From Pseudomonadota bacterium (GTDB taxonomy: Bacteria; Pseudomonadota; Gammaproteobacteria; GCA-002705445; GCA-002716945), in assembly GCA_036140295.1 (NCBI GenBank), contig JAYZYL010000001.1, positions 14,163 to 78,162 of the forward strand: a stretch of DNA of 64,000 nt, given 5' to 3'. This document shows, piece after piece, positions 5,384-64,000 of this stretch. The notes under the pieces are model-generated. The model was given only the letters and a program-made list of their open reading frames with translations. It was not told where the DNA came from and searched no databases. A program made the translations under genes and the position numbers. Every line of letters begins with the position of its first letter. Position 1 is the first letter of the stretch.

Positions 5384-7630
5384 TTAATTTTTATCTATTA
5401 GAATTTCCCTATTTCCATTAGATTGAGGTGCCGATAAGATACCTTTGGCTTCCATGGACTCAATTAAGTTAGCAGCTCGATTATATCCCACTTTAAGCTT
5501 TCTTTGTAAGAATGAAATTGATGTTTTTTTATTTTCTTGAACTATACGAACAGCTTCGTTGTATAGATCATCATCACTAGAATCAATGTCAATTGGATTT
5601 AGTTGCTCTTCATCAACTGATAATAAAGATTCAATATAAGAAGCTTCTCCATTTCTTTTCAAAAACTTAACAACATCTTTAACTTCTTGGTCACTCACAT
5701 AAGCTCCATGAATGCGTTCTATTATTCTTGTTCCAGGTCCAATAAATAACATGTCTCCGTCACCTAATAATTGCTCCGCCCCCATACTATCTATGATGGT
5801 TCGTGAATCAATATGAGACGATACTTGTAAGGCAATTCGAGTTGGTATATTCGCCTTTATCAGCCCTGTTACTACATCAACTGATGGTCTTTGAGTTGCC
5901 AAAATTAGGTGGATTCCTGCAGCTCTTGCTTTCTGAGCTAATCTTATAATAAATTCTTCTGCTTTTTTTCCAACAGCGAACATCATATCAGCGTATTCAT
6001 CAATGACAACTACAATATAGGGAAGTTTTTCATGGTAGTTCTTTATTCCATCTCCATTTATGCCTATTTCTAATTTTTTACCAAGATGTTTATTTTCACT
6101 TATGGTTTTGTTGTAGCTTTGTATGTTTCGTACACCTAATTCGCTCATCATCCTATATCTTTTTTCCATTTGTTGAACGCACCAGCGTAAACCATTTGCG
6201 GCTTGTTTCATATCTGTAATAACTGGGTTTAGCAAGTGTGGGATACCTTCATAAACACTTAACTCCAGCAGTTTAGGGTCAACTAAAAGCATTTTTAAAT
6301 CTGTTGGATTTGATTTATATAAAAGGCTTATGATCATAGAGTGGACTGCAACTGATTTGCCTGAACCGGTTGTTCCTGCAACTAATAAGTGAGGGAGTTT
6401 GTGTAAATCAGTACAGACAGAATTACCCTGAATATCTTTTCCTAATGCAATCGTCAATGGCGATTTAGATTTTTCATAATCTTTTGAAATAATAATATCC
6501 TTCAACGAAACAATTTCTCTAACATCATTTGGGATTTCAATTCCAATAGAGGATGTCCCAGGTATATTATCAACAACTCTAAGACTATTTACAGACATGG
6601 TACGAGCTAGGTCCTTTGATAATGCAACTATCTGGCTTACTTTAATCCCTTTTGCGGGAATGATTTCAAATAAAGTAACTACAGGTCCAGGTCTTACAGA
6701 TTTTACAACAACATCAATACTAAAATCTTTTAGATTAGATTCAAGCAATCTTGACATATTATGCAGTGATTCATCATCATATTTTACTTTTTCAGACTCA
6801 TGTTGTACTAAAAATTCTAACAGGGGAAGATCAGTGCTTGGTTCATCTACAAATAAATCTTGCTGTTTTTCTTTAAATTCTCTTTTGCTAACATGTTTCT
6901 CCTCTGTTGGGAGTTCTACCATAGTCTCAGAGGTTTTTCGTATCAAAGGGTTTTTGTTTAATTTTTTCTCTTCATTTATTTTTTCAATATAAAGATAAAT
7001 TTTCTCTAATGTAGTATTTAAAACAAATTTTATTTTTAAAAAATAGTACTGCATATATTTAATAATATTTGATGATATTTTATTAATTGAAAGATCAAAA
7101 TATTTTATAAGAGAAAATAATAAAAGTGCAATTGAAAGCATAAGAGTTCCAATTCTCCCAACATATAGTCCTATATGGTGATTAAAATAAACTCCAACAA
7201 AACCACCAAAAAATTCTTTATTTTCAGATAAATTTTCAGGAGTAAAAAAGTTAAGCAATATGCATGATGATATGACTATTAGTAAAAAATAAATTACTGT
7301 TGTTAATTTAGCAGGAGAGGTTCCTGACAATTTATCTTTATCCAACATTTTCATTAAAACTGTAGCTATAAGGAAAATAGGAAGAAGAAATGCAAAATAA
7401 CCAACAAATTCAAAAAAGAAGAATGATATGTACGCTCCAACTATCCCTATATAATTATTAACTGTAGAGGCGATGCCTGAATTAAAGAAGTTTGGATCGC
7501 TAGGATCATGACTATAAATTGATACAAAAAAAAGCAGAGAGAGGACTAACACAAAGAAACTTGAGATTTCTTTTTTTAATGAGGTAAGTTTATTTGGTAT
7601 AAACTTTTTGTTTTTTCTAGCTTGAGCCAA
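5384..7630 (-). CDS. ftsK: DNA translocase FtsK
   Basis: N-terminal 4TM domain, Walker A GTTGSGKS, LILATQRPSVDV, C-terminal gamma domain (SISFLQRKLKVGYNRAA). Confidence 0.97.
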   Translation of the reverse strand: MAQARKNKKFIPNKLTSLKKEISSFFVLVLSLLFFVSIYSHDPSDPNFFNSGIASTVNNYIGIVGAYISFFFFEFVGYFAFLLPIFLIATVLMKMLDKDKLSGTSPAKLTTVIYFLLIVISSCILLNFFTPENLSENKEFFGGFVGVYFNHHIGLYVGRIGTLMLSIALLLFSLIKYFDLSINKISSNIIKYMQYYFLKIKFVLNTTLEKIYLYIEKINEEKKLNKNPLIRKTSETMVELPTEEKHVSKREFKEKQQDLFVDEPSTDLPLLEFLVQHESEKVKYDDESLHNMSRLLESNLKDFSIDVVVKSVRPGPVVTLFEIIPAKGIKVSQIVALSKDLARTMSVNSLRVVDNIPGTSSIGIEIPNDVREIVSLKDIIISKDYEKSKSPLTIALGKDIQGNSVCTDLHKLPHLLVAGTTGSGKSVAVHSMIISLLYKSNPTDLKMLLVDPKLLELSVYEGIPHLLNPVITDMKQAANGLRWCVQQMEKRYRMMSELGVRNIQSYNKTISENKHLGKKLEIGINGDGIKNYHEKLPYIVVVIDEYADMMFAVGKKAEEFIIRLAQKARAAGIHLILATQRPSVDVVTGLIKANIPTRIALQVSSHIDSRTIIDSMGAEQLLGDGDMLFIGPGTRIIERIHGAYVSDQEVKDVVKFLKRNGEASYIESLLSVDEEQLNPIDIDSSDDDLYNEAVRIVQENKKTSISFLQRKLKVGYNRAANLIESMEAKGILSAPQSNGNREILIDKN

Positions 7631-46655: not shown

Positions 46656-47243
46656 ATGCAGCTTATCATCATATCTGGTTTAATAGGGTCAGGAAAATCA
46701 ACTGTTTCAAAGTTACTAGAAAAAAAAGGCTTTTACTATTTAGGTGCAGATGAAATAGCTAAAAAAATATTATTAGGAAATAATAAAGTAAAAAAAATGT
46801 TAATAGATTATTTCGGTAATAGTATATTATTTAAAAAAAATATATCTATAAAAAAATTGCGTACTAAACTTATTAAAGATCAAAGTAATAAAAAAATTAT
46901 AGACGATATCATACATCCACATTTTTTCTCTGAAATTAACCTTTCACTAAAAAAACTAAATAATAAAAATGTTGTAGTAGAACTTCCTTTATTAGAAACC
47001 TGTAAGAAAATTTTGAGGAAGTACAAGATAATTGTAGTAGATTGCTCATTAAAGAAAAGGCTTTCAAGAATCTTGAAAAAAAAGAAAATAACTAAGTCGG
47101 AGTTCACTAATATTAATAAAATGCAGAAAAGTAGAAAATTTTATATCAATAATGCTAATTATGTGCTTCCTAATAATGATACAATGAATGTTCTTAATAA
47201 AAGATTTGAGAAATTATATACAAATAAACTTAGGAAGAAATAA
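46656..47243 (+). CDS. coaE: Dephospho-CoA kinase
   Basis: SGLIGSGKSTV, ADEIA, IIHP, VELPLL; precedes zapD. Confidence 0.9.
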   Translation: MQLIIISGLIGSGKSTVSKLLEKKGFYYLGADEIAKKILLGNNKVKKMLIDYFGNSILFKKNISIKKLRTKLIKDQSNKKIIDDIIHPHFFSEINLSLKKLNNKNVVVELPLLETCKKILRKYKIIVVDCSLKKRLSRILKKKKITKSEFTNINKMQKSRKFYINNANYVLPNNDTMNVLNKRFEKLYTNKLRKK

Positions 47244-48011
47244 GTGTCAACTCAATCAGACAATCAAGTTACGGTCTATGAAGAACCGGTACATGAGAGA
47301 ATTAGAAAATTCTTACGAATTGAAACATTATTTAATAGAATTAATTATCTTAAAACTAAAGAAACACATTATGAAAATTATTTTGCCGCTGTTTCTTTGG
47401 CAGAATTATATGAATTATTATTAAGGATGGATATAAAAGCGGAATTAATACGTGACCTTGAAACCCAAAATAGTTCCTTAAAAAGATTTAAAGACCAACC
47501 TGATGCTGATTCAAAAAAACTTAATTCAATGCTTGAGAAACAAGAAAATCATTTAAATCATTTATATTCTAAGGATTCATCCTACTTAGACCATCTTAAA
47601 CAAGATGAACTCTTTAAAACTCTTGTCAAATATTCAAGAAGCTCTACACACCCTTCTTCGCTTACGTATTGGCTATCACGTGATGATCTATCCAGAGAAA
47701 ATCAAATAAATTTATGGTTGGAACCTATAAACTTTATAAATAAATCAATTACGTTTCTTCTTACAACTATCAGAAAATCAGCCACTGCTGTTGATAAATT
47801 AGCAAAAGATGGTTTTTATACAGATAAATTTGATAGTCAAAAAAACCTTCTTTTGATCCGTGTTACATTAACGTCAGACCATTTCTATTTCCCATCAATT
47901 AGTGTTGGGAAACAACGTATTACTATAAGGTTTATGATAAAAGATGACAAAAATAAATTTATTGCACATAAGTATGATGTCCCCTTCATTTTATCTACCT
48001 GTATAATGTGA
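47244..48011 (+). CDS. zapD: Cell division protein ZapD
   Basis: YEEPVHERIRKFLRIE, DIKAELI-x-DLE, LIRV, FPSISVGK-x-R-x2-IRF; GTG start after coaE. Confidence 0.9.
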   Translation: MSTQSDNQVTVYEEPVHERIRKFLRIETLFNRINYLKTKETHYENYFAAVSLAELYELLLRMDIKAELIRDLETQNSSLKRFKDQPDADSKKLNSMLEKQENHLNHLYSKDSSYLDHLKQDELFKTLVKYSRSSTHPSSLTYWLSRDDLSRENQINLWLEPINFINKSITFLLTTIRKSATAVDKLAKDGFYTDKFDSQKNLLLIRVTLTSDHFYFPSISVGKQRITIRFMIKDDKNKFIAHKYDVPFILSTCIM

Positions 48012-50107: not shown

Positions 50108-52732
50108 TTACAATTTACCACAACATTGTTTAAATTTCTTGTTTGTAACTGGACATTTTTTATTTCTTGGTACAGGACCTGAGGCTGAATTTAATAAACA
50201 TTTTGGATCTTCAGATTTTTTAAATTCTACAATCTCTGGCTTATTAGAATCTTCTTGCTGTTGATTTTTAATGTTAATCCTACATAAAATTTTTATAATT
50301 TCATGATTATTAATTAGCAGCATTTCCTCAAACATTTCAAATGATTCTCTCTTATATTCATTTTTTGGATTTTTTTGTGCATAGCCTCTTAAGCCAATCC
50401 CCTGTCTTAAATAATCCATGGCGCTCAAATGTAATCTCCAATCTTCATCAATTATATTTAGAATTATATTTTTTATTAGCTCAATCCTTTCCTCAATATT
50501 CAAAACTGAAAGATTAGATTCTAATTTTTTACTTACTTCCTCTCTAATATAAGTGGTGATTTCTTCCAGTGGATTATCCTCAAATGAATCTATCATTTTT
50601 TCACAATTAGTTTCTAAATGAAATTCTTCGTTTGTGTATGAATCTATTTCCTTTGGATCCCATTGGTTTGCTGGCAAATCTTCAGGTAAAAATTTACTAA
50701 CAATATTCTCAACCTCAAACTTAAGAATATTCTGGAGTATTGTGGGTATATCTTTCGAAAGAAGTACATCATTACGTTGGTTATAAATAACTTTTCTTTG
50801 TTCATTTGCAATATCATCATATTCTAATAGGGTTTTTCTAATATCAAAGTTGTGTGCTTCTACTCTTTTTTGTGCATTTTCTATAGATCTTGCAACCCAT
50901 TTATGCTCAATAGCTTCTCCTTCTTGCATCCCAAGTTTTTTCATTATTTCGCTAACTTTTTCTGAGGCAAAAATTCTCATGAGATTATCTTCTAGTGATA
51001 GATAAAATCTTGATTTCCCTTGATCTCCTTGGCGTCCTGCACGACCCCTGAGTTGATTGTCAACTCTTCTTGATTCATGTCTTTCTGTCCCTATAATATA
51101 TAGACCACCTAATTCTTTGACCTTTTTATGATTTTTATCCCATTCATTTTTTAGTTCTTCAAAATTTTTGGGGTTAAGTTTATCAGAATTAAATAAATAA
51201 TTGCCTCCTAAAACAATATCAGTTCCTCTTCCAGCCATATTAGTAGCTATTGTTATTGTATTTAACTTTCCAGCTTGAGCAATTATTTCTGCTTCCTTTT
51301 GATGATATTTTGCATTTAATACAGAATGTGTCAAATTCTTTGCTTTTAATAATTTTGATAGGTACTCAGAGGATTCAATTGAAGTTGTACCAACAAGTAT
51401 AGGTTGTCCTAATTTATTAATTTTTATAATTTCATCTACAATCGCATTAAATTTCTCTTTCGCTGATATAAAAACCAAATCAACTTCATCTTTTCTAATC
51501 ATTTTCTCATGAGTAGGGATAACCACAACTTCTAATCCATAAATTTGTTGAAATTCAACAGCCTCAGTATCTGCCGTTCCAGTCATGCCTGATATTTTCT
51601 TAAATAATCTGAAATAATTTTGAAAAGTGATTGATGCAAATGTTTGACTTTCGTTTTGAATTTTAACTTTTTCTTTTGCCTCAATTGATTGATGTAAACC
51701 CTCAGACCATCTCCTTCCCGGCATTTTTCTTCCTGAAAATTCATCTATAATTATTATTTGATTATCTTCCACAACATAATCAATATCCTTCTTGTAGATA
51801 AGATTTGCCTTAAGTGCTGAATCAACATAATGATGTAACTGGATGTTTTTGGGATCATAAAGGCTTCCTTTGCTTTTTATTAATTTGTTTTCTAATAAAA
51901 GTTTTTCAACTTCACTATGTCCATCTTCAGTTAGTGATGCATTTTTTTGTTTCTCATCAATTTTATACAAAGATTCTTTTTTACTATTATTTATTAATAG
52001 GTTTATTATTTTATTAATTTGAATATAAAGGGCACCGCTTTCAGATGCAGAACCCGAAATAACTAATGGTGTCCTTGCTTCATCAATTAATACAGAATCA
52101 ACTTCATCAATAATTGCATAAGACATATCGCCTTGTACTTTATCTTTATTGCTATAAACCATGTTATCTCTTAAATAATCAAAACCAAATTCATTATTTG
52201 TTCCATATACAATATCTCTTGAATACATTTCTTTTTTCTCAGAGGGCTCTAGAGTTCCTGAAATTGTACCAACGGACAATCCAAGAAAGGTAAAAATTTT
52301 TTCCATCCAAATTGCATCACGTTGAGCAAGATAGTCGTTCACAGTCACAATAAACACTGATTTAGTTGTTAGAGCATTTAGATATGCTGGTAATGTAGCA
52401 ACTAATGTTTTTCCTTCTCCTGTTTTCATTTCAGCTATTTTTCCTTCATGCAAAGCAATTCCGCCAAGTAGCTGCTCATCAAAATGTCTTAAGCCAAGAG
52501 AACGTCTAGAGGCCTCGCGAACAATTGCAAAGGCTTCAGGTAATAAATTATCAAGATTATTTGAAGATTTATACAGATTCCTTAATCTATCCGTTTCCCC
52601 TGGAAAATCATTGTCATTTAGGGAACTATACTTCTTTTCTAGTCCATTTATTGTTTCTACCAAAGGTTGGTATTTTTTAAGTAATCTACTATTACTCGTT
52701 CCAAGTAAACTTTTTAATATTTGTGGTATCAT
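50108..52732 (-). CDS. secA: Preprotein translocase subunit SecA
   Basis: EMKTGEGKT, DEVDSVLIDEARTPL, TNMAGRGTDI, RGRAGRQGD; atypical C-terminal Cys motif. Confidence 0.98.
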   Translation of the reverse strand: MIPQILKSLLGTSNSRLLKKYQPLVETINGLEKKYSSLNDNDFPGETDRLRNLYKSSNNLDNLLPEAFAIVREASRRSLGLRHFDEQLLGGIALHEGKIAEMKTGEGKTLVATLPAYLNALTTKSVFIVTVNDYLAQRDAIWMEKIFTFLGLSVGTISGTLEPSEKKEMYSRDIVYGTNNEFGFDYLRDNMVYSNKDKVQGDMSYAIIDEVDSVLIDEARTPLVISGSASESGALYIQINKIINLLINNSKKESLYKIDEKQKNASLTEDGHSEVEKLLLENKLIKSKGSLYDPKNIQLHHYVDSALKANLIYKKDIDYVVEDNQIIIIDEFSGRKMPGRRWSEGLHQSIEAKEKVKIQNESQTFASITFQNYFRLFKKISGMTGTADTEAVEFQQIYGLEVVVIPTHEKMIRKDEVDLVFISAKEKFNAIVDEIIKINKLGQPILVGTTSIESSEYLSKLLKAKNLTHSVLNAKYHQKEAEIIAQAGKLNTITIATNMAGRGTDIVLGGNYLFNSDKLNPKNFEELKNEWDKNHKKVKELGGLYIIGTERHESRRVDNQLRGRAGRQGDQGKSRFYLSLEDNLMRIFASEKVSEIMKKLGMQEGEAIEHKWVARSIENAQKRVEAHNFDIRKTLLEYDDIANEQRKVIYNQRNDVLLSKDIPTILQNILKFEVENIVSKFLPEDLPANQWDPKEIDSYTNEEFHLETNCEKMIDSFEDNPLEEITTYIREEVSKKLESNLSVLNIEERIELIKNIILNIIDEDWRLHLSAMDYLRQGIGLRGYAQKNPKNEYKRESFEMFEEMLLINNHEIIKILCRINIKNQQQEDSNKPEIVEFKKSEDPKCLLNSASGPVPRNKKCPVTNKKFKQCCGKL

Positions 52733-52810
52733 TTAAGTATTGATATAAACATATTTTAACATAATCAAAAACCTATAGGTTGGTCAATAATATAACAATT
52801 TTGAGTTTTT

Positions 52811-53080
52811 ATGAAAAAAATTTCATCATTTTTACCTGATAATGTAATTAATAAAAATTTGCTAATAACCAAGTTGAATGAGTTTGTGGCTATCAATTTT
52901 CCTAATATGTCTGTTGACAATATTAAAGTTGTCAATATAAAAGATGGTACCGTTATAATTGGATGCAAAAATAGTTCTCTAGCTACAATTCTTAAGTTTG
53001 AAAAAAATAAATATTTGGAAGTTTTAAAAAATAATAAATTTTTAGAAATTACTGATCTAAAAATAATTGTGGACAGTTAG
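52811..53080 (+). CDS. DUF721 / DciA family protein
   Basis: Small ORF divergent from secA and convergent on lpxC (usual position); G-x-V-x-I-x-C-x-NSS-x-A-x2-L-x-F pattern. Confidence 0.65.
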
Positions 53081-53988
53081 GTTCTTACTTCTATAGGTTT
53101 AGTATAAAAAATTGGAGCATTCTTTTCGTTTTCAATTATAAATTCTTCCCATGCCTCAGAATTATTAATTAACTCTCTTAGTAATAAATTGTTCAGGTGA
53201 TGGCCGGATTTATATGCAGAAAACGATCCTATAATACCATGTCCTAATAAATAAAGATCCCCTATCGCATCTAAAATTTTATGTTTTACAAATTCATCTT
53301 CAAATCTCAACCCCTCTTCATTAATCACTCTGTAATCATCAATTACAATTGCATTATTTACACTACCCCCGAGAGCAAGGTTATTTTTTCTTAAAATTTC
53401 AATATCTTTTGAAAAACCAAAAGTTCTAGCTCTGCTCACTTGGCTTAAATATGAAACAGTTGAAAAATCTATTTCAGATGATTGGGACGTCTCTGTAAAA
53501 GACGGATGATTAAAATCAATAGTAAATGCTACTTTAAAACCATTAAAGGGTTCAATTTTTGCCCACTTCCCATCTTGTTCTACTTTGACGGTTTTTTTTA
53601 TCCTAATAAATCGTTTTGGAGAATTTTGCTCTTGTATTCCTGCTGATTGAATCATAAAAACAAAAGGTCTTGCGCTACCATCCATGATAGGCACTTCAGG
53701 GCCATCTAATTCAACAAGTGAATTATCAATTCCTAATCCTGCCATTGCCGACAAGAGATGTTCCACGGTAGAAATTTGAATAACCTTGTTTGATAAGGTT
53801 GTTGATAGTCGGGTATCATGAACATTTTCTAGTGATGCTTTGATAGGTTCACTGTCAACATCGGTTCTTGTAAATGTTATTCCTGAATTTATTGGAGCAG
53901 GTTTAAGAGTAAGGTTTATTTTTTCACCAGTATGGAGCCCTACCCCTGTAGCCTTGATTTCTTTTGAAAGTGTACGCTGCTTTATCAT
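53077..53988 (-). CDS. lpxC: UDP-3-O-acyl-N-acetylglucosamine deacetylase
   Basis: [45 protein letters not shown]. Confidence 0.98.
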
Positions 53989-54008
53989 TTTTCTAATATG
54001 CTTATGGA

Positions 54009-54037
54009 ATTATATGTTTTTTCTCTAAATTTGTTAA
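54009..54037 (-). promoter_or_regulatory. Sigma70-like promoter TTAACA-N17-TATAAT for lpxC
   Basis: -35 at 54032-54037, -10 at 54009-54014, in the 101-bp ftsA-lpxC gap. Confidence 0.6.
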
Positions 54038-54089
54038 GAAAAACGTCATATTTATAAATATACCCCATATATAGGACAAGATTTACTAG

Positions 54090-55340
54090 TTAAAGTTCTT
54101 TCTGAAAATAGGTTGATAATCTAGCCCAAAATTTGTGCAAAAAGACTAAAATGGGATTATCGGATCTATCTATATCTGGAAAATCTTCTAACTTACTTTC
54201 TCTATACAATAATAGTCCAACAGCAGTAGAACATCTTGTTTTTCCTGTTACATTACCAATACCTTTGATATCTGCAGGGGCTCCTATCCTAGCTGGACAT
54301 GAAAACTTTTCTTCAGCATATTCATCTAACCCAGATAGTCTAGCTCCTCCTCCAGTAAAAACAATTCCTGATCTAATTTTATTTGAATATCCACTATTCT
54401 CTATTTCTTCCCCTATCCTTTCAAAAATTTCATCAATACGACACGAGATTATGTGCGTTAATCCAGTTTTTCTGATTTCGGTATCAGGTTTTTCTGAAAT
54501 TGATGGAATTAAAATCATTTTTTCTTCATCTTCAGGTTTGTTTGTCAGTGATCCGTGTTGAATTTTTATTTCTTCTGCAGCATCAGTTGATGTACGTAAT
54601 CCTATCTTTATATCATTCGTAATCATCTGGCCAGCAATAGGTATAACAGCAGTATGTTTAATTCCTCCATCAGTAAAAACTGCAACATCAGTAGTTCCTC
54701 CTCCAATGTCAACTAAACAAACTCCAAGTGAACGCTCTTCCTCTGACAAGACAGAAAAGCTAGATGCAACCGGCTCTAATACAAAATGATCAATCTCAAG
54801 TAAACTATTTTCAATACATTTAGTCAAATTCTTCTTAGCTGTTGACGAAGAAGTAATGATGTGCACATTTACCTCAAGTCTTGCACCAGCCATGCCTATT
54901 GGCTCTCTTATTCCTAGCTGCCCGTCAATCGTATAATACTGTGGTATTACATGGAGTATCTCTTGGTCACTAGGAATCTGAATATTTTGTGCATTTTGAA
55001 TTACTGTTTCTTTATCATCTTCTGTTACTTCATCATTAACAATATTTATTGCTGCATTTCCACTAAAACACTGTATATGACTTCCGGCAATTCCGGTTGT
55101 CACACTTTTAACGGCAAATCCTGAGTTTCCTCTTGCTAAACTAACAGCCCTCCTGATACTTGAAACTGTTGTTTCAATTTCTGATATAACCCCTCTTTCT
55201 AATCCATCGCAAGGACTTTCTCCCATACCAATAATTCTAAGATCTCCATCATCATCATAATCAGCAACAAGGCAGAGAATTTTTGTTGTTCCTACATCTA
55301 GCCCAACAATAATAGCCTTATTTTTATCAGAATTGCTCAT
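54090..55340 (-). CDS. ftsA: Cell division protein FtsA
   Basis: GLDVGTTKI, GVCLVDIGGGTTD, GIVFTGGG, C-terminal amphipathic helix (FWARLSTYF). Confidence 0.97.
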   Translation of the reverse strand: MSNSDKNKAIIVGLDVGTTKILCLVADYDDDGDLRIIGMGESPCDGLERGVISEIETTVSSIRRAVSLARGNSGFAVKSVTTGIAGSHIQCFSGNAAINIVNDEVTEDDKETVIQNAQNIQIPSDQEILHVIPQYYTIDGQLGIREPIGMAGARLEVNVHIITSSSTAKKNLTKCIENSLLEIDHFVLEPVASSFSVLSEEERSLGVCLVDIGGGTTDVAVFTDGGIKHTAVIPIAGQMITNDIKIGLRTSTDAAEEIKIQHGSLTNKPEDEEKMILIPSISEKPDTEIRKTGLTHIISCRIDEIFERIGEEIENSGYSNKIRSGIVFTGGGARLSGLDEYAEEKFSCPARIGAPADIKGIGNVTGKTRCSTAVGLLLYRESKLEDFPDIDRSDNPILVFLHKFWARLSTYFQKEL

Positions 55341-55369
55341 TGTATCTATATTTTATCACTATTACTTAT

Positions 55370-56029
55370 TTAATGAACAGCAAAACCAGTTGAGTATCGA
55401 AGATCAATAACTTTTATGTTTTTTTTAGCAAGAATACTAAATTGCTCATAAATACTTATAAATTCATTAAACTTTTCAGGATAATTAGAATAACGTACTA
55501 AGAGTTTATACCTATTTGTGTCAACTTGAAGCATGTCGCCAGCATGCGATATTGTCTGTACGCTTAAGCCAATTTCCTTTAGCAGATCCGAGATATCGGT
55601 ATAAAGATCATATATTTCTTTAGAGCTACTTTTACTACTCCTTATCGAAGGGAGGGTTATATCAATTTTACTCTTTACTTCAAATTTTTCACCCTTATCA
55701 TCAATATAGAATTTTTCATTCCATAGTAATAGTGGTTTATATTCAAATAATTCAATAGCTAAAATATCTGGGAATTCACGCATTATAAGTGAATTTTTGA
55801 TCCAATCATTTTGTTCAACATTTTTCTTTATTTCTATTAGATTAATAGTCATCAAATCTTTTCCAATAAATAAATTTAGATCTTTACGCAATTTATTTTC
55901 ATCAACATAAATAAATTCTCCCTTTAATTTAACTTCTTTAATTGGATAAGGTCCAATTAAATTTTTATAATTGAAGAAAAGGTAAATTATGCCTGTAATT
56001 ATTATTAAAAACTTTATCCTAGATTTCAT
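55370..56029 (-). CDS. ftsQ: Cell division protein FtsQ/DivIB
   Basis: Single TM, POTRA (WIK-x4-REFPD-x-L-x-I), C-terminal IDLRYSTGFAV; between ddl and ftsA. Confidence 0.9.
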   Translation of the reverse strand: MKSRIKFLIIITGIIYLFFNYKNLIGPYPIKEVKLKGEFIYVDENKLRKDLNLFIGKDLMTINLIEIKKNVEQNDWIKNSLIMREFPDILAIELFEYKPLLLWNEKFYIDDKGEKFEVKSKIDITLPSIRSSKSSSKEIYDLYTDISDLLKEIGLSVQTISHAGDMLQVDTNRYKLLVRYSNYPEKFNEFISIYEQFSILAKKNIKVIDLRYSTGFAVH

Positions 56030-56934
56030 GAATGGGATAATATTATTTCTAATAATTTAATAAGTTTAAGTTCATTTTTCTCTGCTGACATTGGCACAAG
56101 ACTATGGCTGGTCATACCAGGTATCGAGTTAACTTCAATAAGTTGAATAATTTTATTTTCATCAATAAAAAAATCAACTCTTCCCCACCCCTTACATCCA
56201 AGCGAAAAAAATGCTTTTTTCATCAATTTATTTATAGAAGTCAAAAGATTTTTATCAAATTCTGGAAAAGTAAAAACTGTATCTTCATCAATGTATTTTG
56301 CATTATAATCATAGAATTCTCTTTTTGTATTAATTTTTATGATGGGAAATACGTCTTCCCCTATAATTGGTGCAGTATATTCTTCTCCTGTTACTAGTTT
56401 CTCAGCAAAATAATTATTTAAATTTTTTATATTTTTAATATATTCATTATATTCAGTTTCAGACTTAATTATTTTAATTTCAACACTTGATCCTCCCTTA
56501 ACTGGCTTAACAACAAAAGGCAAACCTACATGGTTTCTTATTTTAGAATATGGTTTATTGAGTAAAATGAAGCTTGGGGTTGATAGATTATCTAAACTCC
56601 ATATTTCTTTGGTAGAAATTTTATCAAATGATATTTTTGAAGACTCAGCATCAGATCCAACATATTTAATGTTTATTTTATCAAGGTATGATTGGATAAG
56701 GCCATCCTCACCACCTTTCCCATGTATTAAATTAAAAATGATATCAATTGAATTTAGGTTAATAAAATTATTTAAAGTTTTCTCATCATCTTTGTCTAAA
56801 TCTAAGAAAAAAGTATCAAAATTATTTTTTAAAAGACATTCATAAACATTCTTTCCGCTTAATAAAGAGATTTCTCTTTCAGAAGACCAGCCTCCACACA
56901 ATATTCCAATCTTTTTATTTTTTATATTATTCAC
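56026..56934 (-). CDS. ddl: D-alanine--D-alanine ligase
   Basis: GGWSSEREISL, HGKGGEDG, GSS, FYDYNAKY, GRVDF, EVNSIPGMT. Confidence 0.96.
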   Translation of the reverse strand: MNNIKNKKIGILCGGWSSEREISLLSGKNVYECLLKNNFDTFFLDLDKDDEKTLNNFINLNSIDIIFNLIHGKGGEDGLIQSYLDKINIKYVGSDAESSKISFDKISTKEIWSLDNLSTPSFILLNKPYSKIRNHVGLPFVVKPVKGGSSVEIKIIKSETEYNEYIKNIKNLNNYFAEKLVTGEEYTAPIIGEDVFPIIKINTKREFYDYNAKYIDEDTVFTFPEFDKNLLTSINKLMKKAFFSLGCKGWGRVDFFIDENKIIQLIEVNSIPGMTSHSLVPMSAEKNELKLIKLLEIILSHS

Positions 56935-57809
56935 TTTTTATTTAGGTGCAATTTCTTTCCAAATATATGAATTTCACAGTCAAGATTAACACCATGCTCT
57001 TTTTTAATTGTCTTTTTTACAAAAAATATTAGTTTCTCTAAATCATCACAAGTACCGGTTCCATCGTTAATAAAATAGTTTGAATGTTTTTTAGATATAT
57101 ATATTCCTCCTATTTTTTTTGTTTTGAGCCCAGATTTTTCTATGAGATAACTTGCAGAAATTTTTGAGTTAGGGTTTTTAAATATACAGCCAGATGAACG
57201 TTGATTCACAGGTTGAGTTGATTTTCTAGTAATAGCATAATCTAGAATTAAGTTTTTGTTGAATTTAATTTTAGAATCAACTGAAAACTCAGCTTCAACG
57301 AAATGTGATTTTCGATTAATATGGACTTTTCGATATAAGGTTGATATTTGTTTTCGATTGAATGATTTTATAACCCCATCGTTGCCAATAACTTTAAATG
57401 TACAAATTTTGTCCCAAATTGATTCACTGAAGGCGCCGGCATTCATTGCCATTGCACCTCCAATTGTCCCAGGTATTCCATGAAGAAATTCAAATCCACT
57501 AATTTTTTCTTTATGAAGAAATTTTGCAAATTTAGAACAGGAGACTCCAGCTCCAACATTTATTTTTTTATTATTTATGTTAATTGTATCTCTATGAAAT
57601 TTTCTTAAACTAATAATAACTCCATCATATCCACCATCCCTAAATGCAATATTAGATCCATTTCCAATAATCATAAATTTACTATCTGAAATAGTTAATA
57701 AAGTATTCTTTAATTCATTAATATTTTCAGGAAAACAAATTTTTTTTGCTCTGCCTCCAAGATGAATTGTAGTGTATCTTGATAGTTTTTCGTTTCGAAG
57801 AATTTCCAT
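56931..57809 (-). CDS. murB: UDP-N-acetylenolpyruvoylglucosamine reductase
   Basis: GNGSN, GIPGTIGGAMAMNAGA, QP-x5-SGCIFKNP, KHSNYFIN. Confidence 0.95.
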   Translation of the reverse strand: MEILRNEKLSRYTTIHLGGRAKKICFPENINELKNTLLTISDSKFMIIGNGSNIAFRDGGYDGVIISLRKFHRDTININNKKINVGAGVSCSKFAKFLHKEKISGFEFLHGIPGTIGGAMAMNAGAFSESIWDKICTFKVIGNDGVIKSFNRKQISTLYRKVHINRKSHFVEAEFSVDSKIKFNKNLILDYAITRKSTQPVNQRSSGCIFKNPNSKISASYLIEKSGLKTKKIGGIYISKKHSNYFINDGTGTCDDLEKLIFFVKKTIKKEHGVNLDCEIHIFGKKLHLNKK

Positions 57810-57810
57810 A

Positions 57811-59190
57811 TTATATTAACTTTATTAATTGTGAAATATTGCCAGCCCCTTGCACTAAAACTATATCCTTTTCTATAAAAAGAGATCTAATTTTTTCTGG
57901 AATCTTTGTTAAATCTTTAACATACTCACAATTTATTCCTTCCTCTCTCAATTTTTTGAATAAATAATAAGAGGTAAATTTAGTTTTTTTCTCACCCCCA
58001 GAATATGTTTCAGTAATTATAATTTTATCTATATTTGAAAAAACTTCTATAAATTGTTTTAAACAATTCTCAGTTCTACTAAATCTATGTGGTTGGAATA
58101 TCATAAGAATTTTTCTATCTTTCCAAATTTTTCTTATAGTATTCACTGTAAAATTAATTTCAGTAGGGTGGTGACCATAATCATTTATCAAAATATGTTT
58201 TCCTAATCTTGATTTAAATTTTCTATAAATATCAAATCTTCTAGAAATCCCTTCAAATTCTTTAATTGCTTTTATCACTTTTTTTATGGGTACCTTTAAA
58301 TATAATGAAACAGAAAAAGCAGCAAGTATATTTAAAATATTATGTTCTCCATATATTTTTGTTTTTATTTTGTGTGATGTATGATTATTATTAATCAAAA
58401 AATCCATTCCGTTTTCATGATAAATAATGTTTGAAGGATAATAATCATTATTTTTATCAAGACCAAAAGTGGTTATAGCTCTATTTACTTTTTTAAAAAT
58501 TGATTTAGTATTTTTGTCACCTCCGTTTAGAAAAACTCTTCCATAAAATGGAATATTGTTAATGTATGAAACATAGGCTTCTTTAAGATTCTCAAAGTTA
58601 TTTTCAAAATTATCCAAATGTTCATTATCAATATTAGTAACTACACCTAATTGTGGGTTTAAAAATAAAAAACTTGAATCGCTTTCATCTGCTTCTGCGA
58701 TAAGATATTTTCCATAACCTAGGCGTCCATGATTATTACTTGTTTTTAATTTTCCTCCAACAATATATGTTGGGTCTAAGTTAGTTTCGGCCAATATCCA
58801 ACTTATTAAGCTTGTTGTGGTACTTTTCCCATGTGATCCAGCAATAGCAATTCCATATTTAAACCTCATTAGTTCTGCTAGCATTTTTGCTCTAGGTATT
58901 GCAGTAATATTGTTTTGTTCTGCAAATTTTAGTTCAGGGTTATTTTTATTAATTGCATTTGAATACACAACTAAATCTACATTTTTAAGGTTAGAAATAT
59001 TATGCTTGGAATATATTTTAACGCCAAGGGATTTCAATCTTTTTGTTATGGTACTTTTTACTAAATCAGAGCCAGAAACTGAACATCCTAAATTTAATAA
59101 TACTTCGGCAATTCCGTACATGCCAGATCCACCAATTCCTATAAAATGAATTTTTGTCAGATTCTTGATTTGTTCAAAAGAATTATTCAT
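57811..59190 (-). CDS. murC: UDP-N-acetylmuramate--L-alanine ligase
   Basis: IHFIGIGGSGM, GSHGKSTT, EADESD, DYGHHPTE, FQPHRFSRT; start probably MNNSF at 59190 (track gives 59202). Confidence 0.96.
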   Translation of the reverse strand: MNNSFEQIKNLTKIHFIGIGGSGMYGIAEVLLNLGCSVSGSDLVKSTITKRLKSLGVKIYSKHNISNLKNVDLVVYSNAINKNNPELKFAEQNNITAIPRAKMLAELMRFKYGIAIAGSHGKSTTTSLISWILAETNLDPTYIVGGKLKTSNNHGRLGYGKYLIAEADESDSSFLFLNPQLGVVTNIDNEHLDNFENNFENLKEAYVSYINNIPFYGRVFLNGGDKNTKSIFKKVNRAITTFGLDKNNDYYPSNIIYHENGMDFLINNNHTSHKIKTKIYGEHNILNILAAFSVSLYLKVPIKKVIKAIKEFEGISRRFDIYRKFKSRLGKHILINDYGHHPTEINFTVNTIRKIWKDRKILMIFQPHRFSRTENCLKQFIEVFSNIDKIIITETYSGGEKKTKFTSYYLFKKLREEGINCEYVKDLTKIPEKIRSLFIEKDIVLVQGAGNISQLIKLI

Positions 59191-60274
59191 TAATATTTTC
59201 AATAAGCTTGACGGATTGATCTATAATTATTTTTGCGGGGTTTCTTGGAAAAACTTTTTGAATATTTTTAGACAAAGTGTACATTCGTTTCTGATCATTA
59301 AGTATTATATTGATTGTATTCACAAAATTTTCTACAAAACTATCATTTTGTTCAATTAAAATACAAGCAGATTGATTTGCCAAATAAGATGCATTATAAA
59401 ATTGATGGTTATCTGTTGCAAAAGGGAATGGAACTAGAATAATTGCCCTGCCTATTGTAGAAATTTCAGATAAAGTTGTTGATCCAGATCTACATACAAT
59501 AAGATTCGCCCAATCATATAATTCATTAATATTTTCAGCATAATCAAAAACTGCAGCATTAATTCCATATTTTTTATATCTGCTTTCAACTTGTCGAGTA
59601 TTCTCAATCCCTGATATGTGTTTAACTGTAATATTATGTTTATAAAAATATGAAAATACAAATGGCAGTGATGTATTAAAAAATGAAGACCCTTGACTCC
59701 CTCCTAAAACTAAAATATTTAAATATGATGATTGACTTAAATATTTTTCTTCAGGTTTTTCTAAATTCAAAAATATTTCTCTTATCGGATTTCCGGAATG
59801 AACAATCTTATTATTATTTTTATTAAAGCTGTCTGGAAAGGTTTCAAAGATCTTTTTTGAAAAATAGTAATTTATTTTATTTGCAGTTCCTGCAATTGAA
59901 TTCTGTTCATGTATGACAACTGGAATTTTTAAAAAATATGAAATAATGATTCCAGGTAAACTAACGTAGCCTCCAAATCCAACAGTTAATTTTGGATTAT
60001 AGTGTTTTATTATTTTATATGCCTCAAATATAGACTTAAATAAATAGAGTATTCCTGTTAATTTTTTAGTTATTGATTTTCCACGAATCCCTGTTGAGCT
60101 AATATTTTTAATTATTATTGAATCATTTTTTATGACTCTATGTTCTATACCTTTTTCTGTTCCTAGCCAAATAATATTATAATCTTGTTTTATGAATTCT
60201 GTTGCAATCGTATATGCAGGGTAGACATGTCCTCCTGTACCACTAGCAAGGATTGCAATAAATTTTTTTTCCAT
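59183..60274 (-). CDS. murG: Lipid II GlcNAc transferase
   Basis: GTGGHVYP, GFGGYVS, HEQN, GNPIR, GGSQG, DNHQ-x2-NA. Confidence 0.96.
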   Translation of the reverse strand: MEKKFIAILASGTGGHVYPAYTIATEFIKQDYNIIWLGTEKGIEHRVIKNDSIIIKNISSTGIRGKSITKKLTGILYLFKSIFEAYKIIKHYNPKLTVGFGGYVSLPGIIISYFLKIPVVIHEQNSIAGTANKINYYFSKKIFETFPDSFNKNNNKIVHSGNPIREIFLNLEKPEEKYLSQSSYLNILVLGGSQGSSFFNTSLPFVFSYFYKHNITVKHISGIENTRQVESRYKKYGINAAVFDYAENINELYDWANLIVCRSGSTTLSEISTIGRAIILVPFPFATDNHQFYNASYLANQSACILIEQNDSFVENFVNTINIILNDQKRMYTLSKNIQKVFPRNPAKIIIDQSVKLIENINE

Positions 60275-60276
60275 TT

Positions 60277-61428
60277 TTAAAACTCCTTTTGATAAGCTTG
60301 GCTAATTTTTCTTCTATTTTCTATCTGTATTCTAATTAAAATCCCTATACAAATAAACATAACTAATATATTTGTTCCTCCATAGCTTATAAATGGAAGG
60401 CCCATACCTTTAGTAGGGAATAAGCCTGTATTTACCAACATATGTATTAAAGTTTGGATAGAAATCAAAAATCCAATTGAATAAGTTAAATAAGATGCGA
60501 ATATTAGATCATTATTTGTTGATTTTTTAGCCAGCTTAAATATTCTTGAGATGAGTAAAATAAAAGTAGCCATAACAAAAATTGTAAAAAATAAGCCTAA
60601 TTCTTCGGCAATAACTGCAAAAACAAAATCATTATATGATTCAGGAAGATAATGTAGTTTTTGTATGCTTGAACCTAAACCAAGACCAAATAATCCTCCT
60701 TTGCTAAATGCCAATGAAGATGCAATTACTTGAAAACCTCCTCCGGATGGATCTGCCCAAGGGTCCAGAAAACTCAGTATGCGTTTAAATCTATAAGGTT
60801 GGAAATAGATTATTGGAATTATTGCAATGACAACAGCTAATGTCCAGCCTGCAAATTTTTTTATGCTTATTCCAGCTACAAGAGACAAACCCAAGAAACT
60901 AGCTACTAATAAAAATGCACTTCCAAAATCTTTCTGTAATAGAATTATTAAAGCCAAAAGTACAATTGCTGCAAGAGGTTTATTAAATGTATTGTCATCA
61001 GGTTTTCTAACTATATAACTTGATACCCAAATTAGGATTAATAATCTAGAAATTTCAGAAACCTGTACAGTAAATAATCCTAAATTAATCCATCGTTTAG
61101 CTCCCTTTACTTCTATTCCTAATCCTGGAATAAAAACCAATAATGATAATATGAGTGCAAATAAAAGAATTACTTGACTATACTTATAATAAAAATCTAA
61201 CTTAATATGGGCAAGCAAGAATGCTATCGTTATTCCCATTGCAAGAAATATAGAGTGTTTAATTATGAAATAAAATGCATTATTTTCTCTTAAGTCTAAA
61301 GTGGTTGATGTCACCATGATAAAACCAATTAGAGATAGAGTTGTTACACAAATAATGAAAGTATTATCTATCCCACTACTTTTGGTAACAAGTAAAAATT
61401 TTTTTATCTTTTCACTTAGTAATATCAT
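60277..61428 (-). CDS. ftsW: Peptidoglycan polymerase FtsW
   Basis: GAKRWI, QKDFG, PYRFKR, GGGFQ, LPESYNDF, PFISYGG. Confidence 0.95.
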   Translation of the reverse strand: MILLSEKIKKFLLVTKSSGIDNTFIICVTTLSLIGFIMVTSTTLDLRENNAFYFIIKHSIFLAMGITIAFLLAHIKLDFYYKYSQVILLFALILSLLVFIPGLGIEVKGAKRWINLGLFTVQVSEISRLLILIWVSSYIVRKPDDNTFNKPLAAIVLLALIILLQKDFGSAFLLVASFLGLSLVAGISIKKFAGWTLAVVIAIIPIIYFQPYRFKRILSFLDPWADPSGGGFQVIASSLAFSKGGLFGLGLGSSIQKLHYLPESYNDFVFAVIAEELGLFFTIFVMATFILLISRIFKLAKKSTNNDLIFASYLTYSIGFLISIQTLIHMLVNTGLFPTKGMGLPFISYGGTNILVMFICIGILIRIQIENRRKISQAYQKEF

Positions 61429-62728
61429 TAACTGCTTTTATAAACTCCTCTCCTCGCTCTTCATAATTAGAAAACATATCAAAGCTTGGGCTGGCAGGTG
61501 ATAATAATACAGAGTCACCAGAAGATGAATTTTTATGAGCTACTAATACAGCATCACGTATTGATTTTACATCAATCATTGGTTTTTTTGTTATTAATTT
61601 TTTCCGTATCATTTTTTTATTTTCTCCAAGAAAAATAATAAGTTTTACACTTTCTTCTATATAAGAATTAAGCTTACTGTAATCTAGTAATTTTTCTGAC
61701 CCACCTAAAATTAATAATATATTTTTTTTAACAAATTTTATTGCTGCAATAGTAGATGATACATTTGTTGATTTTGAGTCATTATACCAAGTTACATTAT
61801 TATGCTCTTTAATAAATTGTATTCGATGTAAGGGATACTTGTAGGAAGCTAAAATTGGAAACGCATTATCCATATTAATATTTAATATTTCAGAAATTGA
61901 TAAAACAGCTAATAAATTATCAAGATTATGAATTCCCCTAAATCTGATTGATGTATTTTTGTAGGAAATCTTATTATCATCAAAGTTTAAATTATTATTA
62001 ATTTTTCCATTAATAAATATTTTCTTTAACTTATCGTCAAAGCCATATAGTTTATGGCCTTTAATGTCTAACATCTCTTTACTTAAACTAATATTACATA
62101 CAGAATGTTTACAATCTAAAAATATTTTCTTTTTAATAGATAAATAATTCTTGTAGTTTTGATGCCTTTCTAGATGGTCATCCTCAACGTTTGTGATTAA
62201 ACTAATAAAGGCTCTAATATTTTTTGTATACTCTAATTGATAACTTGAAAGTTCAAGCACCAAATACTTATAATCACAATCATTCAAAGACTTCAGTATA
62301 GGTACTCCATTGTTCCCGCATGCCAATGATTTAAGATCTAAGTGATTTAATAAATGCTCTAGCATGTCAACAACAGTTGTTTTCCCATTTGTTCCTGAAA
62401 TTGCAATAATAGGTATATTTGAATACCTGTGCCATAGCTCTATGTCAGTAATAATAGGAATAGATAATTTTCTCACTTCATTGATAATTTCATGATTTAA
62501 GCTAAGACCTGGACTAATTACTACTTCTTCAATATCATCAAGAAATTCTTTTTCAAAATTTTTAAACCTATAAAGTGATTCCGTTTTATTTCCTTCGCTC
62601 ATGCAGTTTTCTGCTAAATTATTTCTTGTATCAAAAACCTTATACTCAATATTATTTTTCTCAAAGAAATTAATACACGATTGCCCAGTTTTCCCTATAC
62701 CAATAACTAGTTTTTTCTTTGGCGACAT
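61412..62728 (-). CDS. murD: UDP-MurNAc-L-Ala--D-glutamate ligase
   Basis: SPG, SGTNGKTT, LELSSYQL, NDSKSTN, LLSPASPSFDMF-x-NYEERG. Confidence 0.96.
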   Translation of the reverse strand: MSPKKKLVIGIGKTGQSCINFFEKNNIEYKVFDTRNNLAENCMSEGNKTESLYRFKNFEKEFLDDIEEVVISPGLSLNHEIINEVRKLSIPIITDIELWHRYSNIPIIAISGTNGKTTVVDMLEHLLNHLDLKSLACGNNGVPILKSLNDCDYKYLVLELSSYQLEYTKNIRAFISLITNVEDDHLERHQNYKNYLSIKKKIFLDCKHSVCNISLSKEMLDIKGHKLYGFDDKLKKIFINGKINNNLNFDDNKISYKNTSIRFRGIHNLDNLLAVLSISEILNINMDNAFPILASYKYPLHRIQFIKEHNNVTWYNDSKSTNVSSTIAAIKFVKKNILLILGGSEKLLDYSKLNSYIEESVKLIIFLGENKKMIRKKLITKKPMIDVKSIRDAVLVAHKNSSSGDSVLLSPASPSFDMFSNYEERGEEFIKAVNDITK

Positions 62729-62731
62729 AGT

Positions 62732-63817
62732 TTATCTAATCTTCAATGAAGATAATGCGACTAATACGAGAATAAAGGTAATTATCCAAAAACGTACAAT
62801 GATTTTTGGTTCCGGCCATCCTTTTAGTTCAAAATGGTGATGTATGGGGGACATTTTAAAAACCCTTTTTCCAAAAAATTTAAATGAAATTACTTGAATT
62901 ATAACTGAGAGCACTTCTGCAACAAAGACACCGCTCATGATAGCAAATGCAATCTCTTGCCTTAATAAAATTGCCATCGTCCCTAAAATTGCTCCAAGTG
63001 ATAAAGATCCTACATCACCCATAAATATTTCTGCTGGGTACGAGTTATACCATAAAAAACCCAATCCAGATCCAACAACTGCACTTGAAAAAATTGCAAT
63101 TTCAGAAACTCCAGGCAAATATGGAATAAGGAGATAATTAGCTAGAACCATATTGCCTTCAACATATGCAAAAACTACAAAGGCTGCTGAAATTAAAATA
63201 CATGGTAATATTGCTAAACCATCAAGTCCATCGGTGAGGTTTACGGCATTACTAGAACCAATTATTATAAAAATACTCCATGGAATAAAAATCCAACCCA
63301 AATAAAAAGAAAATGTTTTGATGAATGGGAGTATTAAGGTAATTTCCAAATCATTCTCAAAATTTAAAAATATGAATAGCGTCACAAGTAAAGAGAATAT
63401 TATTTGTAAAGAAAACTTAGTACGGGCTTTTATACCGTCGCTATTGGACATAATAAACTTTTTATAATCATCATATAATCCTATAGAACCAAAAGTGATT
63501 AGAATAAATAATAGAATCCAAATATTTTGATTATTTATATCTGCCCACAGCAACGTACTAATAATAATAGAAATAATAATTATTAAACCTCCCATAGATG
63601 GAGTATTTGCTTTATCAGTAATATGTGATTTAGGTCCATCATCTCTGACACTTTGATACATATTCTTGCTTTGAAGAATTTTTATTATATAAGGGCCTAA
63701 AATTAAAGAGCTGAATAGTGCAGTTAGTGCAGTTAAAATTATTCTTAAGGTCAAATACTGAAATACATTAAATCCAGAGTAGTATTGCGAAAGATAATCA
63801 AATAAATAAAGTAACAT
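62732..63817 (-). CDS. mraY: Phospho-N-acetylmuramoyl-pentapeptide transferase
   Basis: TPSMGG, SNAVNLTDGLDGLA, FMGDVGS, PIHHHFE. Confidence 0.97.
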   Translation of the reverse strand: MLLYLFDYLSQYYSGFNVFQYLTLRIILTALTALFSSLILGPYIIKILQSKNMYQSVRDDGPKSHITDKANTPSMGGLIIIISIIISTLLWADINNQNIWILLFILITFGSIGLYDDYKKFIMSNSDGIKARTKFSLQIIFSLLVTLFIFLNFENDLEITLILPFIKTFSFYLGWIFIPWSIFIIIGSSNAVNLTDGLDGLAILPCILISAAFVVFAYVEGNMVLANYLLIPYLPGVSEIAIFSSAVVGSGLGFLWYNSYPAEIFMGDVGSLSLGAILGTMAILLRQEIAFAIMSGVFVAEVLSVIIQVISFKFFGKRVFKMSPIHHHFELKGWPEPKIIVRFWIITFILVLVALSSLKIR

Positions 63818-63829
63818 ATTTTAGTAATT

Positions 63830-64000
63830 CTAATCTTTTCTTAATGTTAATGCATCAACTATGCTTTCAAATTTCATAAAGCGAGAAGCTTTGATTAAAA
63901 TGTTAACATCTTTTGAGATAATATCTTTCACATAGCTTATTAATTCATCTTTGTTATCAAAACACAAAGCGCCTTTTCCAAACCCTTTCAAAATCAGGTT
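63830..64000 (-). CDS. murF: UDP-MurNAc-tripeptide--D-Ala-D-Ala ligase, C-terminal end (runs off window end)
   Basis: Hand translation ...DVNILIKASRFMKFESIVDAL...; usual position upstream of mraY. Confidence 0.85.
   Translation of the reverse strand, partial: NLILKGFGKGALCFDNKDELISYVKDIISKDVNILIKASRFMKFESIVDALTLRKD

Follow-up and report, generated by a model that had tools for sequence, protein, structure and literature searches.

In the order of uncultured marine Gammaproteobacteria to which this genome belongs, ftsZ has been relocated within the dcw operon, leaving the ftsA-lpxC junction for a slot between ftsL and ftsI. This relocation is ancient and order-wide, and it is associated with a conserved RNA structure. 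The window, i.e. the whole 64-kb stretch analysed here (contig C1:14163-78162), contains the distal part of the operon; features beyond its end are given in window-equivalent coordinates, to which 14162 is added to obtain the C1 position. The 101-bp spacer that now separates ftsA from lpxC is almost certainly the closed-up former ftsZ site, the gene having moved ~14 kb upstream within the operon. The best explanation, in which we have high confidence, is an ancestral relocation of the native ftsZ into the ftsL-ftsI slot; the expression model described below, which goes with it, has about even chances. The host order comprises one family, six genera and 37 species genomes of ~0.9-1.2 Mb and ~30% GC. 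All readable contexts, found in 23 of these 37 genomes (this one and 22 relatives) and in the six genera, display the relocated order.

In the canonical arrangement of E. coli and Pseudomonas, the dcw genes run mraZ-rsmH-ftsL-ftsI-murE-murF-mraY-murD-ftsW-murG-murC-(murB)-ddl-ftsQ-ftsA-ftsZ-lpxC. The present cluster resembles it by its gene content, its single strand, its tight packing and its mraZ-rsmH head, and shares with it rnpB upstream and lpxC-dciA-secA downstream. It differs in that ftsZ is located at ftsL-ftsI and not at ftsA-lpxC, thereby breaking a pair that is kept in 135 of 141 other gammaproteobacterial families. The dcw cluster has been described as among the most stable bacterial clusters, with the Chlamydiae and Planctomycetes, in which ftsA and ftsZ were lost, as the known exception (PMC8871954). 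No description of an ftsL-ftsZ-ftsI order was found in the literature searched, the main dcw survey being outside its scope; the novelty resides in the gene order, not in the division mode, and an earlier description is possible. The relocation bears on the reasons why the dcw order is conserved and on how a single operon sets the FtsZ:FtsA:FtsI ratios, and it offers a specific conserved RNA element that is open to testing.

The canonical terminal junction ftsA-ftsZ-lpxC is absent from this genome, in which ftsA ends at 54090 and lpxC starts at 53988, and it is likewise absent from 20/20 relatives of the order that were checked, their ftsA-lpxC spacers measuring 63-118 bp. Such spacers are too short to leave room for an ftsZ remnant, and none was found in the 101-bp spacer by tblastn with FtsZ. 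The tubulin signature GGGTG[TS]G is absent from all six reading frames of the 64-kb window, and a tblastn search of the window with FtsZ returned no match better than E=1.9. The spacer contains a TTAACA-N17-TATAAT element on the lpxC strand, with 11/12 consensus matches. It is the top-scoring promoter-like site within 52700-56100, a region in which the total count of such sites is not above chance. We infer that it serves as the lpxC promoter. By eye, CTTAACA or TTAACA can be read in most of 20 other spacers at a comparable distance from lpxC, while TGGTAGAAT-like or TGATAGAAT-like boxes replace TTAACA in five spacers of 63-64 bp (L153, L156, L159, L161 and L166). To note, most of the 21 spacers carry TTGTC, or GGTC in some members, just past the ftsA stop codon (54060-54089 here), and a TTGTCC-N17-TATAAA element near the ftsA stop of this genome could be a second promoter.

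The original prediction had described several of these features from the window, and its description of the junction stands: the 101-bp gap is real, the near-consensus promoter is found in it, and neither an FtsZ remnant in the gap nor the signature in the window is detected. The genes from mraY to ftsA (mraY, murD, ftsW, murG, murC, murB, ddl, ftsQ, ftsA) are contiguous as it had listed them, and lpxC, a DUF721 gene and secA, which it had placed past the gap, are all matched by HMMs. The DUF721 gene, an 89-residue ORF on the strand opposite to that of lpxC and secA, is matched by PF05258 (DciA), which we take to be the family once named DUF721. The FtsZ partners said to be intact are also present: ftsK, ftsQ and ftsW, the latter two in the contiguous dcw run, and zapD (E=8.6e-52). 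The identity of ftsQ rests on its Pfam POTRA_1 and FtsQ_DivIB_C domains. ZapD scores 176 bits against a curated cut-off of 213 and is thus a divergent member of its family; its gene comes after coaE, which encodes dephospho-CoA kinase. Residue R301 of FtsA (SCRIDE) pairs with R300 of E. coli FtsA (EPRYTE) in a phmmer alignment to 7q6d_A, which bears out the proposed equivalence. As for the amphipathic tail attributed to FtsA, the C-terminus NPILVFLHKFWARLSTYFQKEL is indeed there, and its amphipathic character is a reading by eye.

The cluster runs beyond the window, and this is where ftsZ is found (Table 1). When the entire assembly, 701 kb in 9 contigs and 77% complete, is searched with TIGR00065, a single match exceeds the cut-off, at C1:82654-83634 (-), within a full-length ftsZ; at this completeness, a second copy elsewhere in the genome is conceivable. 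The slot of this gene starts 4.3 kb beyond the window end, on the same contig and the same strand, which explains why it was invisible to a reader of the window. Its product carries both Pfam domains, PF00091 (168 bits) and PF12327 (107 bits), and its translation displays the tubulin signature MGGGTGTGAAP and the T7 loop NVDFADV. It terminates with DIPAFLRQQAD, recognisable as the conserved C-terminal FtsZ peptide, predicted to bind FtsA/ZipA; the identical peptide closes FtsZ in the four further members of the order compared at this end. As FtsZ is intact and this FtsA-binding peptide is kept, division is predicted to be of the ordinary FtsZ/FtsA-based type. ZipA (TIGR02205) has no match in this 77%-complete assembly; should a complete genome prove to be devoid of it as well, the sole known membrane tether for FtsZ would be FtsA.

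The complete gene order reads mraZ-rsmH-ftsL-ftsZ-ftsI-murE-murF-mraY-murD-ftsW-murG-murC-murB-ddl-ftsQ-ftsA, followed by lpxC. The dcw genes are contiguous and on one strand, with mraZ-rsmH at their head, and ftsZ interrupts the canonical ftsL-ftsI adjacency, with spacers of 16 nt to ftsL and 15 nt to ftsI. On sequence grounds, the common strand and these short spacers place ftsZ inside the operon. The original prediction had envisaged a relocation under separate control: the relocation is confirmed, the separate control is not. The rnpB gene is located directly upstream of mraZ, ~150 bp from the mraZ start, which must confine the mraZ promoter to this short spacer.

Table 1. Features of the relocated ftsZ locus and of the genes discussed, in window coordinates (window-equivalent above 64000)
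Feature	Position	Strand	Evidence
ftsK	5384-7630
coaE	46656-47243
zapD	47244-48011	+	E=8.6e-52
secA	50108-52732	-	NF009538, 1164 bits
dciA (89-aa ORF)	52811-53080	+	PF05258, 26.5 bits (cut-off 24)
lpxC	53077-53988	-	TIGR00325, 389 bits
ftsA-lpxC spacer (ftsZ place in canonical clusters)	53989-54089	-	exactly 101 bp
Probable lpxC promoter, TTAACA-N17-TATAAT	54037-54009	-	11/12 consensus matches
ftsA	54090-55340	-	TIGR01174, 416 bits
mraY-murD-ftsW-murG-murC-murB-ddl-ftsQ (contiguous)	55370-63817	-	HMMs above cut-off except ftsQ
murF (only the 3' end, 63830-64000, in the window)	63830-65164	-	TIGR01143, 375 bits
murE	65161-66564	-	TIGR01085, 366 bits
ftsI	66548-68275	-	best family match E=3e-114
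Conserved hairpin	68229-68264	-	folding and covariation
ftsZ, relocated (399 aa)	68291-69490	-	TIGR00065, 408.5 bits (cut-off 295.2)
GGAGG ribosome-binding site of ftsZ	69499-69503	-	sequence
ftsL	69507-69794	-	TIGR02209, E=5.7e-7, under cut-off; position-consistent
rsmH	69760-70704	-	TIGR00006, 340 bits
mraZ	70898-71389	-	TIGR00242, 146 bits
rnpB (RNase P RNA)	71540-71875	-	RF00010, 287 bits

Two sequence elements accompany the relocated gene. The first is a GGAGG motif ahead of the ftsZ ATG, present in 31/31 loci of the order and located 8 nt upstream of the ATG in this genome. The second is a hairpin located ~30 nt past the ftsZ stop, within the first ftsI codons, with a stem of 10-13 bp in 25/25 distinct sequences. 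In this genome it reads ATGGCGACAAT-N14-ATTGTCGCCAT (68264 to 68229) and is followed by a U-rich stretch. Several pieces of evidence support its conservation as an RNA structure: RNAalifold predicts the stem unaided; in an alignment of 21 sequences, 90.5% of the cells are paired, as compared to 35-58% in controls with a slid 3' arm; compensatory changes are seen in 7 of the 11 pairs; the cells with double changes amount to 32, versus 10.7 in shuffles; none of 500 shuffles reaches the observed covariation score. One genus even possesses a wholly different stem sequence at the same location. For the ftsI 5' window, 17 members of the order have folding z-scores between -2.9 and -6.1 (median -4.5), and 19 canonical-order Gammaproteobacteria have values between +1.6 and -2.1 (median -0.2; Mann-Whitney p=3e-7), the anchor of the window being approximate for those outgroups in which the FtsI alignment starts late. 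An Rfam scan of the mraZ-ftsI region returned rnpB only, hence no known family for the hairpin. A simple terminator scan restricted to loops of 3-8 nt did not flag it, the hairpin loop being 14 nt long.

The sequence behind the stem and the beginning of ftsI vary among the members of the order. In same-genus relatives, a run of 7-8 U directly follows the stem, while the U-tract of this genome and of several genera is interrupted or offset. This region encodes a membrane helix in a genome of ~30% GC, and U-richness is expected there anyway. The ftsI ATG of this genome lies 15 nt past the ftsZ stop, at 68275, and with this start codon of its own ftsI does not require coupling to ftsZ translation here. 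Ahead of the conserved FtsI region, an in-frame ATG, GTG or TTG is available in less than half of the order's 31 loci, and several of these starts are too far downstream to be plausible. The codon matching the ftsI ATG of this genome is AGA or AAA in its three same-genus relatives (L032-L034).

In the canonical dcw order, high FtsZ levels are due to additional promoters close to the cluster's end. The native ftsZ almost certainly left the ftsA-lpxC slot for the ftsL-ftsI slot in the ancestor of the order. In the model proposed for the relocated order, ftsZ, now the fourth gene, would owe its transcription to the mraZ promoter, to which it is proximal, and the invariant strong GGAGG site would provide efficient FtsZ translation. 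The hairpin with its U-rich tail would lower the expression of ftsI and probably also that of the genes beyond. Its mode of action might be partial termination of transcription, a block of translation initiation, or both: partial termination is conceivable in view of the 7-8 U directly behind the stem in same-genus relatives, and hindered initiation in view of the position of the stem, which starts 11 nt past the ftsI ATG. The net result would be FtsZ far in excess of FtsI. As to lpxC, its transcription would start at a promoter of its own, located in the spacer, just as before the departure of ftsZ. That position, strong ribosome-binding site and attenuation together set FtsZ far above FtsI is a proposal, derived from sequence, to which we would give even chances.

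This arrangement is reminiscent of the rplL-rpoB attenuator, an intra-operon attenuator giving unequal expression. In both, a conserved U-tailed stem-loop separates a gene with an abundant product from one with a scarce product in the same operon; in the present case, however, the structure is located within the downstream coding sequence and termination is putative. It is conceivable, though rather unlikely, that the hairpin is not an attenuator at all, and would instead stabilise the 3' end of a processed mraZ-ftsZ mRNA or act purely as a brake on ftsI translation. Such roles would fit a stem lying within reach of the initiating ribosome and a U-tract that is interrupted in many members, and the fact that most relatives are devoid of a canonical ftsI start codon points to translational control. 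Conversely, the same-genus stems with their directly adjoining U run have the textbook form of an intrinsic terminator, and attenuator and non-attenuator roles are compatible with each other.

Regarding the origin of the moved gene, the FtsZ proteins of the order are monophyletic in two FtsZ trees, with an SH-aLRT support of 100. They are nested among the FtsZ of canonical-order Gammaproteobacteria (SH-aLRT 85-91), and are placed apart from those of Neisseria, Geobacter, Acidobacteriota and others in both trees. Monophyly and nesting together indicate one ancient move of the native gene, and the simplest reading is that ftsZ would have moved once, in the ancestor of the order. In a xenologous displacement, a foreign ftsZ would have entered the ftsL-ftsI slot, and the native copy behind ftsA would have been deleted afterwards. 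The FtsZ trees are poorly resolved, with a support of only 85-91 for the gammaproteobacterial nesting, and the best matches outside the order include Geobacter (50-51%), close to Halothiobacillus (53%), which would leave room for such a scenario. It is nonetheless very improbable: the FtsZ of the order group with those of canonical-order Gammaproteobacteria and not with non-proteobacterial ones; with same-class outgroups they share 49-58% identity in 11 of 12 cases (40% for L059), at least as much as with other phyla; the GC content of ftsZ, 0.40 as compared to 0.36 for ftsA, suits a conserved, highly expressed native gene.

The native relocation is documented well beyond this assembly. Using the dcw proteins of this genome as tblastn queries, the order mraZ-rsmH-ftsL-ftsZ-ftsI-murE-murF is observed in 22/22 loci of the relatives, and also in 9/9 loci of the order from a genome contig collection. 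Among their sources are a single-cell genome and a 780-kb contig, and every sufficiently complete relative carries ftsZ. The ftsA-ftsZ pair is kept in 12/12 same-class outgroups and in 71/71 more distant loci. The assembly analysed here is in 9 contigs and 77% complete, which might have raised the suspicion that the ftsA-lpxC or the ftsL-ftsZ-ftsI junction is an artefact of assembly or binning. The chance of this is negligible, since both junctions recur in independent assemblies from differing studies and methods, the single-cell genome among them, on contigs of 240-820 kb and in six genera with 60-75% protein identity. Misassembly is excluded by this agreement over 31 independent loci, and concordance across assemblies excludes it more firmly than the reads of one sample would.

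A true loss of ftsZ, with division proceeding without FtsZ while FtsA and ZapD are kept, had been put forward because no ftsZ is visible at ftsA-lpxC or elsewhere in the 64-kb window; it is refuted by the full-length, above-cut-off ftsZ on the same contig, the very outcome that the original prediction had named as reducing its claim to a relocation, and the presence of ftsZ in all sufficiently complete relatives makes it vanishingly improbable. The cluster is therefore not deprived of its ftsZ, and the unusual FtsZ-free mode of division that the original prediction had drawn from its absence is not implied, an intact copy being present in the same operon. Chlamydiae, Planctomycetes and Ca. Vesicomyosocius okutanii are walled or semi-walled bacteria that are FtsZ-less; the likeness to them lies in the in-window look, ftsA and peptidoglycan genes without an adjacent ftsZ, and the difference in the intact ftsZ of this genome. 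A walled bacterium with FtsA and ZapD but without FtsZ would be remarkable; this claim is wrong, and a false lead is averted.

Two peculiarities were met among the relatives. Genome G010 contains an extra ftsZ of 354 amino acids (within C6:7700-16700, with the same match on C2) on short contigs and without dcw context; its product falls among non-proteobacterial FtsZ in the tree, and it probably stems from contamination of the bin, for which the estimate is 5%. Two other relatives have an ftsZ broken into two overlapping frames (G017:C13:17712-18619 and G041:C3:39473-40379), the result of either a frameshift or a sequencing error.

The position of ftsZ was surveyed in one genome from each of 150 other gammaproteobacterial families, using models of ftsZ, ftsA and rsmH. 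In 141 of these families ftsA and ftsZ were both detected, and they are adjacent in all but six of them. In G106, 1.9 kb separate the two genes; in G127 and G142, they are on different contigs; G104 and G113 exhibit the order mraZ-rsmH-ftsZ-ftsL-ftsI, and G076 the order ftsZ-rsmH-ftsL-ftsI without mraZ. In the class-wide rsmH survey, no further genome carries rsmH and ftsZ on one contig at a distance of up to 6 kb. To note, ftsZ, ftsA and rsmH all escaped detection at the thresholds used in G155 (1.5 Mb in one contig, 89% complete), as did ftsZ and ftsA in G060 (0.4 Mb), while in G097 and G178, both 100% complete, ftsA was found and no ftsZ at E<=1e-60. These four genomes are candidates for a real ftsZ loss or a strong divergence.

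The three genomes with a front-placed ftsZ resemble the order in that ftsZ is parted from ftsA and located beside rsmH at the promoter-proximal end; in addition, ftsA adjoins lpxC in G104, and G076 and G113 have small genomes of 0.9-1.1 Mb. They differ from it by an ftsZ slot one or two genes away and, in the case of G104 and G113, by the lack of a hairpin at the ftsI start, where the folding z-score gives no comparable signal. The FtsZ of G104 and G113 are sisters (support 96), and neither these nor that of G076 group with the FtsZ of the order. The different slot, the placement in the FtsZ tree and the absent hairpin indicate that these moves are independent of that of the order. Thus ftsZ moved to the front of the dcw cluster at least three times in the class, G104/G113 and G076 representing two further events.

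Among genomes with ftsZ, those of 1.2 Mb or less have it front-placed in 3 of 3 cases (this one, G076 and G113), versus 1 of 139 larger ones; a hand-computed Fisher exact test that ignores kinship and involves small numbers gives ~9e-6, and the association of a front ftsZ with small genome size is suggestive. A wider interpretation, built on the three independent moves and on this size distribution, is that a front-moved ftsZ may be a repeated adaptive solution in streamlined Gammaproteobacteria, in which position, ribosome-binding site and an ftsI attenuator would replace the many internal promoters that usually lift FtsZ over its neighbours, ftsI being start-less in most members of the order and translated only by ribosomes finishing ftsZ. 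We regard it as tentative and somewhat doubtful. In the closed 1.9-Mb genome of G104, the dcw cluster itself is split: mraZ-rsmH-ftsZ-ftsL-ftsI-murE is located at 1.53 Mb, and murC-ddl-ftsQ-ftsA-lpxC-secA at 0.20 Mb, 1.3 Mb away from the first part.
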